Origin: Parachlamydiales bacterium
GTDB lineage: Bacteria > Chlamydiota > Chlamydiia > Chlamydiales > SM23-39
Assembly (NCBI GenBank): GCA_050302075.1
Contig: JBNLAH010000009.1
Coordinates: 1 to 22,372, forward strand
DNA: 22,372 nucleotides
Direction: 5' to 3'
Shown: piece by piece, positions 2,303 to 4,253 of the stretch
Layout: the number at the start of each line of letters is the position of its first letter
Numbering within the stretch: position 1 is the first letter of the stretch
Program-made: the position numbers and the translations under genes
The notes under the pieces: generated by a model
What the model was told of the DNA's origin: nothing
The model's input: only the letters and a program-made list of their open reading frames with translations
Databases searched by the model: none

Positions 2303-2815
2303 TTATTTTTGTATCTTTTTTCCAATTGGAGCTAACACAGTTGAGATGTTTCTCCCCATTAATTTAATCTGAGATTCAATGATTGCCACTTCATTTAGCT
2401 CTTCACAAAATCTATTGACCAGGTCATATCCTAGATCTTTATGTAACATTTCCCTACCGCGAAATGAACATGTAACTTTTACTTTGTTTCCTTTCTGAAT
2501 AAACTCTTTAGCACGTTTGATTTTTGTATTCAAATCATTGTCGTCGATATTCGGTTTCAATTTAACTTCTTTTACTTTTACTTGGTGCTGAGACTTTTTA
2601 CTCTCTTTTTCTTTTTTTGATTGATGGTAAAGGTATTTTCCATAGTCAATCAACTTGCACACAGGTGGTTCTGCATTTGGGGCTATTTCTACAAGGTCCA
2701 AGCCAACGTCCTCAGCTCTTCTTAATGCCTCAGGAACCGTCATTAATCCTAATTGGCTGCCATCACTTCCGATTACCCTCACTTTAGCAGCTCGAATTTG
2801 TCTATTGATTCTCAA
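2303..2815 (-). CDS. infC: Translation initiation factor IF-3 (TTG start)
   Basis: [56 protein letters not shown] lies 5 nt before the TTG, and an in-frame TAG lies 9 codons upstream. Confidence 0.98.
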
Positions 2816-4253
2816 TGTTATCCTTCTGTTTGAGTTTACCTAGCAGTTCATAAAGTTTAAGTCGTTGCATTTCATGTCCATTTTCGAAACGTAATGCGAT
2901 TGTTTCTGTCTTCGCTTCTTTTTCTCCAATAACTCCGATAAATGGAATATCTTGCATTTTCGCGTTAAAAATTTTTTCATTTAGCGATTTGTCTGAATCA
3001 TCTATATCAACACTAAATCCGCTTTCTTGAATGGCCACTTTAACATCATTTGCATAATCAATACACATCTTATCAAGTAAGATCAACCTTATTTGCTCAG
3101 GCAAAATTTCAAAGGCTGGATTATCGCTTTCAGCTATCAGGGCTATCCACCTGTTTAAAGAACTACAAAAATCACTTTCTACTGTGTTTTTACTTAATTT
3201 CAAAGTAGAAATATTCCATTTTCTTCCGATTTTATCGCTAGCAAAAACTCTTAGTTCGCAATCGGGTTCTGCACTATGTAGTTCATACTCTAAGTCTAAT
3301 ACCTCTAAGGCCTTCTTAAAGGCTGCTTCTTTGTATTTGAACTTGAGATTAGCAGAAACACATAGCTCAAATTCAAACCTAAAGCCTAAAATATTAAGCA
3401 TTTTTACAATCGATTGCAAGTAAGAAATGCATTCACCTAAAAACTCATTTTTAAAAATAAAAGTTGTCCTTTTGATCGAAACATTTATTTGAGAGTTAAA
3501 CAAATCTTTTTCAAAAATATCAGAATTTTCTCCAAAAACAACTTCGAAAACCTTATTTAAACCCAAATTGGGATTTTTTAATAACTCAATATGCTTAATG
3601 GGAAAAGACTGGAGCGGTTTATATCCAGAAGTCATCATTTCGTCAGTAATTATTTTTAAAATTTTATTTTTTAAAATAACTCCTTTGGAATAGAAATAAA
3701 TTTGATCATTATGAAGATCAAACCATTTTCTTTTCCTTCCCATTGTTAAAAAATTATTTCCCTCATAATCTTTTAGGTCTTTTAGGAATTTAGAACATTC
3801 TTTTGCATCTTCGAAAACCAACCCTGAGACTCTATAAATGTTTTCATCTATTTTTTCGAGCTTATGCAATTTTATAAAAAATTTATGATCCTCCTTTATG
3901 GAACTCTCGAGCGGAAAATAATCAACAAAACCATCTACTTCGATTAGATTAACTAAAGGCTTGTCAGTATTGATATTTCTCTTAACTTGGCCTAAATGCT
4001 CCAAGTAATTTTTTGCATTATCGACCATCATTTCTTTAAAAGAAATTTTAGGATTGGAAGTAACTTTATTGGTAACTCTTTCTAATTCTTCTAAATGACT
4101 TTCCGAAATCGGATAAGGGAGATAAAAATCATAGTAAAAATATAATTGATCTTGGCCGTTTTCAATAAATTGAATCTCTGGCAAGACCTTTTTGGCTGCT
4201 GATGCAAAAAAAGTAGCAGCTAGAAATTTTCTTTCAATTGATTTTTTACTCAT
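2802..4253 (-). CDS. Threonyl-tRNA-synthetase-like protein (483 aa), catalytically degenerate: N2-like, catalytic-like and anticodon-binding domains, no TGS domain
   Basis: ThrRS landmarks in the correct order: FYYDF, YRVSGLVF (RIYGTAW), DKIGRKW (DCLDRAW), SSLNRWIALIAE (GSMERFIGILTE), KI...IPFIGVIGEKE...ALR. Sits in the thrS position upstream of infC. Start moved to ATG 4253 because the ORF-track start (4304) lies inside the tRNA-Val gene. Confidence 0.9.
   Translation of the reverse strand: MSKKSIERKFLAATFFASAAKKVLPEIQFIENGQDQLYFYYDFYLPYPISESHLEELERVTNKVTSNPKISFKEMMVDNAKNYLEHLGQVKRNINTDKPLVNLIEVDGFVDYFPLESSIKEDHKFFIKLHKLEKIDENIYRVSGLVFEDAKECSKFLKDLKDYEGNNFLTMGRKRKWFDLHNDQIYFYSKGVILKNKILKIITDEMMTSGYKPLQSFPIKHIELLKNPNLGLNKVFEVVFGENSDIFEKDLFNSQINVSIKRTTFIFKNEFLGECISYLQSIVKMLNILGFRFEFELCVSANLKFKYKEAAFKKALEVLDLEYELHSAEPDCELRVFASDKIGRKWNISTLKLSKNTVESDFCSSLNRWIALIAESDNPAFEILPEQIRLILLDKMCIDYANDVKVAIQESGFSVDIDDSDKSLNEKIFNAKMQDIPFIGVIGEKEAKTETIALRFENGHEMQRLKLYELLGKLKQKDNIENQ

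Follow-up and report, generated by a model that had tools for sequence, protein, structure and literature searches.

The stretch of DNA analysed here (the window; 22,372 nucleotides (nt), contig JBNLAH010000009.1 of a Parachlamydiales bacterium) encoded, directly before infC, a protein of 483 amino acids (aa) related to threonyl-tRNA synthetase (ThrRS). The reading preferred here is that of a pseudo-ThrRS, a protein with a ThrRS-type fold which is catalytically dead, selected, syntenic and accessory, and which would work by binding rather than by chemistry; taken as a whole, this reading has in our estimation about an even chance.

The open reading frame (ORF) ran on the minus strand from an ATG at 4253 to a TAG at 2804-2802 (483 codons, no stop inside), and was followed on the same strand by infC, rpmI, rplT, pheS and a tRNA-Ser gene. 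The start was placed at 4253 because a longer, TTG-started frame reaching 4304 enters tRNA-Val(GAC) (4263-4336) and was rejected, and because the close orthologs (P0003-P0005 and L059) share the same initial methionine. The infC start codon (TTG, 2815) gave an overlap of 14 nt with the ThrRS-like ORF, and a Shine-Dalgarno-like AAGGA (2825-2821) lay 5 nt before this TTG. Both the overlap and the Shine-Dalgarno sequence carried inside the ORF had been described in the first-pass annotation, whose coordinates and operon description were also correct, the minus strand being now made explicit.

Fold and active-site residues of the window protein

The only domain recognised by Pfam was the HGTP-type anticodon-binding domain (ABD; PF03129, residues 387-476, E 4.8e-18); tRNA-synt_2b, tRNA_SAD and TGS gave no match to the window protein in this database. 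The NCBIfam model for thrS (TIGR00418) matched in two stretches with 97.1 bits (E 1.2e-27), below its cut-off of 383.65. Comparison with PDB sequences (phmmer) paired residues 12-226 with residues 77-305 of Staphylococcus aureus ThrRS (1nyq), and residues 362-470 with 520-631. AlphaFold, run on a family alignment of 23 rows, gave a model with pLDDT 87.2 and pTM 0.83, the lowest confidence being at residues 221-250, in the class II core, and the top Foldseek matches were all ThrRS structures (1qf6, E 2.2e-31, TMq 0.71; 1nyq, TMq 0.72). The expectation values of the HGTP-type domain, of TIGR00418 and of the Foldseek match exclude a chance resemblance, and the window protein is, as modelled, a ThrRS derivative which keeps the overall ThrRS fold. 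It was about 19% identical to the canonical ThrRS of its own genome and began at about residue 62 of that enzyme in the alignment, the TGS domain being absent. A Pfam PH-domain match (22.6 bits, under the 25.1 cut-off) and a DUF1899 match were dismissed as chance.

Individual residues were followed by aligning the window protein with its own canonical ThrRS and then, through a phmmer alignment, with E. coli ThrRS (1qf6 numbering); in the E. coli enzyme, zinc is bound by Cys334, His385 and His511. At the editing site, HxxxH was replaced by F10...T14 and CxxxH by F113...S117 (DLCRGPH changed to DYFPLES), and the intact HxxxH/CxxxH of free-standing editing factors (ThrRS-ed/AlaX type) was likewise absent from the window protein. 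A deletion of about 40 alignment columns took away KPMNCPG together with Cys334. In motif 2, the canonical HRFE...FRVRSFHQDDAH aligned to DIFE...LFNSQINVSIKRT, with the Arg363 and His385 positions lost (Thr at the latter), GAFYGPK had become SAEPDCE, and MIHRA had become TVESD, with Glu at the position of His511. The motif 3 Arg (R368, in LNRW), the core-to-ABD linker motif and, in the ABD, GEKE and ALR (the equivalents of E600 and R609) were kept. To judge from its sequence, the window protein cannot carry out synthetase or editing chemistry. The list of lost residues drawn up by eye in the first-pass annotation was reproduced by the computed alignments; only the exact placement of “FGEN” in motif 2 came out differently, in a stretch where the alignment is ambiguous. 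The features listed there as kept (LNRW, GEKE and ALR) and the change of R583 to Phe also stood.

The genome (1.84 Mb, 89 contigs, 96% complete) contained a single match above the thrS cut-off, on another contig (C3:230399-232063, 688 bits), as the first-pass annotation had predicted. It encoded a 641-aa canonical ThrRS with TGS, HxxxH, CRGPH, KPMNCPG, motif 2, GAFYGPK and IHRA, and with a tRNA-synt_2b score of 156.6 bits (vs. no match for the window protein). This complete thrS is the predicted source of tRNA-Thr charging in the cell, and a canonical ThrRS was present in every chlamydial genome where it was looked for. A thrS gene before infC-rpmI-rplT is the usual bacterial arrangement, known from E. 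coli; to judge from its position, the copy before infC may be the original thrS, and the live gene a duplicate or a transfer, the tree described below being unrooted and the paralog branches long.

A pseudo-ThrRS family in environmental chlamydiae

A word-indexed search of 5.8 billion proteins retrieved three close orthologs, each of 483 aa (identities of 76, 71 and 53%), after which the next matches were ordinary ThrRS at 21-22% identity. Among 200 genomes of the same order, many carried a second, TGS-less ThrRS-like frame at 23-33% identity, and 50 loci from other genomes (19 + 20 + 11) were examined. The ThrRS-like ORF stood directly before infC, on the same strand, in 50/50 of them, a count which tells where paralogs lie and not which share of infC genes has one, because the loci were chosen as paralog matches. 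The genes rpmI and rplT followed infC in all examined loci extending far enough, and tRNA-Val(GAC) was directly upstream in 48/50, the exceptions being L013 (contig end) and L106 (no such tRNA in the fetched stretch). Flags for “stops inside” on L012 and L023 were rejected: they marked the own stop codons of these frames, which fell at the end of the match, and neither frame is interrupted.

When 1.84 billion cluster representatives (50% level) were searched with the profile, the best 150 matches were all 367-612 aa long and scored 388-578 bits, which sets the family at no fewer than 150 clusters at 50% identity. Cluster members were named by their sources as Chlamydiia, Chlamydiales or Parachlamydiales bacteria and Ca. 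Rhabdochlamydia porcellionis. The window gene is, on this distribution, a member of a large, unnamed family of putative pseudo-ThrRS spread over environmental chlamydiae. NCBIfam held no model specific for the chlamydial ThrRS-like family, and a related-locus search of genome contigs with the window protein as query gave no match. Public names of the proteins were “hypothetical protein”, [quoted passage not shown], “threonyl-tRNA synthetase” or “Threonine--tRNA ligase”. The ThrRS names given to family members (clusters of P0005 and P0065) were considered misannotations, which could suggest two thrS genes.

In the tree (IQ-TREE quick search, 78 rows, unrooted, long branches flagged as unreliable), a branch with a support of 100 set all 44 paralogs apart from the remaining rows. 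The 26 chlamydial canonical ThrRS formed a group of their own (support 100), nested among 8 non-chlamydial bacterial ThrRS, and end branches were about 1-3.6 for the paralogs vs. 0.02-0.35 for the canonical enzymes. An extreme case was L093:3-1412 (+), a 470-aa ORF before infC in a 1.2-Mb genome, which had no Pfam match and was placed in the family by hhalign (99.5% probability, E 1.5e-22, 16% identity). Hyper-diverged members, missed by ordinary searches, thus belong to the family as well.

Loss of the catalytic residues extended over the family. Compared with 34 ThrRS, the 42 aligned paralogs (positions in E. coli numbering) kept Cys334 and Asp383 in no case, and Gln381, His511, Arg363, Lys465 and His385 in fractions of 0.02, 0.05, 0.10, 0.10 and 0.24, respectively; of the editing residues, His73 was kept in 0.12 and His77 in none. 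The motif 3 Arg was kept in 0.79 of these proteins, and the equivalents of E600 and R609 in 0.88 and 0.81 of all 42, that is, in all or nearly all ABD-bearing members. The longer members (499-591 aa) retained more of the enzyme: tRNA-synt_2b was above its cut-off in 7/39 (32-70 bits), and L055 still carried DDCPGPH. The whole family is therefore predicted to be dead, to differing degrees, and the window subfamily is among the most reduced. The proposal of a remaining enzymatic role (as atypical ThrRS, as trans-editing factor, or as synthetase-like ligase with a new substrate) could draw on the motif 3 Arg, on the class II fold and on the long members with a detectable tRNA-synt_2b or CxxxH. 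Set against the missing zinc Cys, Asp383 and editing His77, the scarcity of the motif 2 Arg, the deleted zinc loop and unrecognisable motif 2 of the window protein (where model confidence was lowest) and the full thrS in the genome, its probability is close to negligible.

Some positions were conserved in the family and not in ThrRS. Motifs present in at least 74% of the paralogs and rare in ThrRS were EMMxxNA, ISSLQFI, the W of WxPKG, and A-L in the motif 3 helix. EMMxxNA corresponds in the window protein to KEMMVDNA (residues 73-80, in the N2-like part, that is, the part resembling the ThrRS editing domain), with M75 and N79 among the family-conserved, non-ThrRS positions, and the ISSLQFI helix corresponds to ISYLQSI (residues 276-282, in the core; 5/7 consensus letters).

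Selection on the protein was estimated as dN/dS by the NG86 and YN00 methods, with ortholog DNA taken from metagenome contigs (L059, 90% identity; L061, 71%); no evidence was drawn from pairs whose dS exceeded 1.9 or was undefined. The values (NG86/YN00) were 0.09/0.16 against L059, 0.18/0.21 against L061, and 0.17/0.18 between L059 and L061, with bootstrap 95% intervals for the whole paralog of 0.07-0.15 (vs. L059) and 0.14-0.25 (vs. L061); infC gave 0.03-0.20 in the same comparisons. By part, dN/dS was 0.04-0.15 in the N2-like domain, 0.13-0.35 in the core and 0.15-0.24 in the ABD, and the bootstrap intervals against L061 were 0.04-0.18, 0.17-0.40 and 0.09-0.32, respectively; the ABD interval against L059 was wide (0.06-0.96) because of the few changes. 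Pairs from other lineages with unsaturated dS gave 0.15/0.23 (L022/L025, ABD-less) and 0.18/0.27 (ABD-bearing), and the canonical thrS of the ABD-bearing genome pair 0.08/0.10. The paralog is thus, on these estimates, under purifying selection, less tightly than the canonical enzyme, since both its dN/dS and its dN exceeded those of canonical thrS in the same pair. Values well below 1 in intact orthologs, in every domain and in the ABD too, agree with the retention proposed in the first-pass annotation.

One stretch of the window departed from the general similarity to L059: at positions 3581-4180 of the minus strand, which fall in the N2-like domain and the beginning of the core, nt identity was 77-85%, vs. 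92-99% in the rest of the region from the tRNA to pheS. Within these 600 nt, dS was 1.69, compared with 0.11 in the ABD, and omega was 0.04. The patch looks like a recombinant (mosaic) allele, and not like the result of positive selection.

Losses, expression signals and possible role

Several results weigh against a selected binding function. At non-synonymous sites the paralog changed about 2.5 times as fast as canonical thrS did between the same two genomes (dN 0.089 vs. 0.035, NG86). Outside the family-specific motifs, the conserved residues appear to be a subset of the structural residues of ThrRS, so that a purely residual fold is hard to dismiss. In the ABD of the window protein, three of the five mapped tRNA-contact positions were changed (D, F and D stood in place of N575, R583 and R589, which are tRNA-contact residues of E. 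coli ThrRS in the excerpted part of PMC4756836), and the domain was acidic, with a pI of 4.8 vs. 6.9 in the canonical ThrRS of the same genome.

The ABD itself was absent from 16/50 loci examined: 5 of the first 39 (L018, L021, L022, L025 and L027) and all of the last 11. Every ABD-less ORF ended at infC, which shows that the domain was deleted and not split off. L027 (406 aa) lacked the ABD and yet kept the acidic, Ser-rich C-terminal tail which follows the ABD in L017 (500 aa), as would be left by an in-frame deletion of the domain. Because L017, of the same genus as L027, has both the ABD and this tail, at least two independent losses must be counted. Sampling 61 genomes evenly gave 26 with a second, TGS-less frame (E <= 1e-25, a threshold which undercounts carriers; see L093 above), and about 10 of these 26 had the ABD and about 16 did not. 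With the domain missing from so many members, anticodon-type RNA binding cannot be the common function of the family. The emphasis placed on the ABD in the first-pass annotation consequently fails at the family level, the ABD-less pair L022/L025 being still under purifying selection (0.15-0.23).

That annotation had proposed a regulator or scaffold binding tRNA-Thr or mRNA; in a regulator of the E. coli operator type, the ABD would bind tRNA-Thr or a tRNA-Thr-like element in the infC operon or in the thrS mRNA. E. coli ThrRS is a translational repressor of its own mRNA, and the window gene resembles this system in encoding, beside infC and within a translation-factor operon, a ThrRS-type protein which might bind RNA through its ABD; in the window lineage the domain is intact and under purifying selection, and the E600 and R609 equivalents are kept almost throughout the ABD-bearing members. 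Here, however, there is no leader for an operator, because the gap between tRNA-Val and the start codon is just 9 nt; in the other loci the ORF began a median of 16 nt (n=39) after the 3' end of the tRNA, whose CCA is encoded, the distance being 20 nt or less in 29/39 and 0 in L021 and L027. Over the window and the thrS locus, the sole Rfam matches at the gathering threshold were the two tRNAs, other mRNA targets not having been searched, and the dispensability of the ABD in many members and the changed contact residues point the same way, as its acidity may do. A role as an RNA regulator of this type is accordingly rather improbable.

The gene as a whole could also be lost. In four genomes of the window family (L091, L092, L094 and L095), only 110-320 nt free of any such ORF separated tRNA-Val(GAC) from the infC downstream of it, and the paralog was found in none of the 22 genomes scored from f35, a family with small genomes (1.0-1.3 Mb), where the profile found canonical ThrRS only (5/5) and the infC loci were without the tRNA (5/5) and without such an upstream ORF (2/2 listed). 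Both absences count against an indispensable function. In the four relatives the gene was lost by clean deletion, and it is accessory and dispensable.

For the binding function itself, a dimerising regulatory or docking subunit is favoured, because the characterised dead class II paralogs SLIMP and HisZ act as subunits and because the part conserved throughout the family is the core with the N2-like domain. The scaffold formed by these two parts would dimerise, with itself or with the canonical ThrRS, and in lineages which keep the ABD, such as that of the window, this domain would also hold tRNA-Thr-like RNA. The dose of the paralog would be tied to translation capacity, the gene being probably co-transcribed with the tRNA and with the genes for initiation factor 3 (IF3), L35, L20 and PheRS-alpha. 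In this more specific form the proposal is tentative, and we would put its chances somewhat under even.

Both precedents have their limits. According to excerpts of the sources, SLIMP, the insect/metazoan SerRS-like protein, heterodimerises with mitochondrial SerRS and keeps tRNA binding (PMC9437257, PMC10570016). It is, like the window protein, a class II paralog with an ablated active site, selected beside a live paralog; the chlamydial protein differs in being bacterial and ThrRS-derived, and the live ThrRS has lost nothing which the dead copy could supply. HisZ is the HisRS paralog which serves as regulatory subunit of the ATP-phosphoribosyltransferase HisG (excerpt of PMC9437257). It too is a bacterial, non-aminoacylating class II paralog and has no ABD, as is the case for many chlamydial members; HisZ, however, keeps its amino-acid site and has a known enzyme partner, whereas the threonine/zinc site of the chlamydial protein is gone and its gene context suggests no metabolic partner.

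A narrower alternative is a dedicated heterodimer partner of the canonical ThrRS, in which a dead and a live subunit would join through the class II interface and alter activity, stability or tRNA handling. The family-wide conserved module (N2-like part and class II core, not the ABD), the retained motif 1 region and motif 3 helix, the canonical ThrRS in every chlamydial genome checked and the SLIMP precedent (excerpts of PMC9437257 and PMC10570016) fit such a partner. The canonical ThrRS, however, is complete (TGS, N2, core and ABD), with no complementary loss as in SerRS2-alpha, and relatives without the paralog keep an ordinary thrS, which leaves this alternative unlikely.

The signals around the gene were distinctive. 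The paralog of the window starts 9 nt after tRNA-Val without a Shine-Dalgarno sequence, and a Shine-Dalgarno-like tetramer (-18 to -4) preceded the paralog in only 2/41 loci vs. 33/41 for infC. The gap between the stop codon of the ORF and infC had a median of 9.5 nt (n=40), with an overlap in 14/40 and 30 nt or less in 30/40, and the infC start position was TTG in 33/40 loci; infC of E. coli starts with AUU. The paralog thus looks like a near-leaderless cistron, lacking a Shine-Dalgarno sequence, behind the tRNA, with infC coupled to its end, and the layout points to tRNA processing as the putative origin of this near-leaderless state. A promoter/terminator scan of positions 400-4700 found 11 promoter-like sites, not above the 14.6 +/- 3.9 expected by chance.

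These signals bear on a further alternative, a relic acting in cis, in which the DNA would be kept for the ribosome-binding site of infC, for translational coupling and for the link to the tRNA-Val promoter, while a protein with little or no function is slowly lost. The infC Shine-Dalgarno sequence and start inside the ORF, the frequent overlap or closeness of the two genes, the repeated whole-gene deletions and domain losses, and the fast evolution (long end branches and one member without a Pfam match) would all be expected of such a relic. It would not explain why purifying selection acts on amino acids over the full length, even in the N-terminal domain (omega 0.04-0.15), which lies 1.3 kb from infC, why the predicted fold is of high confidence and family-specific motifs are conserved, or why infC stands at 110-320 nt from the tRNA without any ORF in the deletion genomes; internal promoter-like sites were, moreover, no more frequent than chance. 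We see only a slim chance for the relic.

A more ambitious form of the subunit proposal is equally a long shot: an order-wide pseudo-synthetase (a “bacterial SLIMP”) which would serve the live ThrRS as a regulatory or tRNA-docking subunit, within a feedback loop of tRNA, pseudo-ThrRS and infC. IF3 disfavours leaderless initiation, and a unit made of the tRNA, the pseudo-ThrRS and infC would therefore form such a loop. With its cistron 0-20 nt after tRNA-Val and coupled to infC, the loop would tie together tRNA processing, the level of IF3 and the activity of ThrRS.

Known systems and other features of the window

The window protein shares with bacterial ThrRS (TIGR00418; 1qf6, 1nyq) the fold and the domain order (N2, class II core, HGTP-type ABD), the position before infC-rpmI-rplT, the motif 3 Arg and the core-to-ABD linker motif. 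Unlike them, it has no TGS domain, zinc ligands, motif 2 or editing HxxxH/CxxxH, and by catalytic criteria it is not a member of that group. Antibiotic-immunity copies of ThrRS are active duplicates, and resemble the window gene in being a second ThrRS-type gene in addition to the housekeeping one. Anabaena T2 and vertebrate ThrRS-L/TARSL2 are of the same kind (PMC9437257, Table 1, in excerpt). All these duplicates keep aminoacylation, of which the window protein is predicted to be incapable.

A full-text literature search found no description of a dead bacterial ThrRS paralog or of the chlamydial family, and the excerpted table of duplicated synthetases in a 2022 review gives only active ThrRS duplicates, with Chlamydia never mentioned in that excerpt (PMC9437257). 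Dead synthetase paralogs with new roles are already known for HisRS (HisZ) and SerRS (SLIMP). The chlamydial family is old (it spans the order), large and fixed in position, and its members form a natural gradation, from proteins of 590 aa whose core is still recognisable, through 317-aa proteins lacking the ABD, to clean deletions, which can be used for studying the displacement and repurposing of an essential enzyme gene. For the annotation and metabolic reconstruction of chlamydial genomes, the paralog may be miscounted as thrS.

Coordinates of the ThrRS-like gene, its parts and the neighbouring genes in the window
Feature	Position	Strand	Remarks
Whole ORF, 483-aa ThrRS paralog predicted to be catalytically dead	2802..4253	minus	stop TAG 2802-2804; Pfam, NCBIfam, phmmer, AlphaFold, Foldseek
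N2-like (ThrRS editing-domain-like) part	3759..4253	minus	residues ~1-165; alignments, phmmer
Degenerate class II core	3114..3758	minus	residues ~166-380; Zn-Cys loop deleted, motif 2 lost, Arg368 kept
HGTP-type anticodon-binding domain (ABD)	2805..3113	minus	residues ~381-483; Pfam PF03129
tRNA-Val(GAC)	4263..4336	minus	ends 9 nt ahead of the ATG of the ThrRS-like ORF; ARAGORN, Rfam
AAGGA Shine-Dalgarno-like element for infC	2821..2825	minus	within the 3' end of the ThrRS-like ORF
infC (IF3)	2303..2815	minus	TIGR00168, 221 bits; TTG start
rpmI (L35)	2091..2288	minus	
rplT (L20)	1713..2072	minus	
pheS	640..1662	minus	
tRNA-Ser(TGA)	512..598	minus	closes the same-strand cluster

Two further ORFs of the window (13055-13471 and 15255-16550) had no Pfam match. 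Otherwise, the remaining part of the window (9134-21367) carried housekeeping genes, which encoded a ferritin-like protein, subunits I and II of cytochrome bd, a folP-type pterin-binding enzyme, a CdaA-type diadenylate cyclase, a glycosyltransferase, a lipid A acyltransferase, an RNA methyltransferase and a pyruvate kinase with a PEP-utiliser domain.

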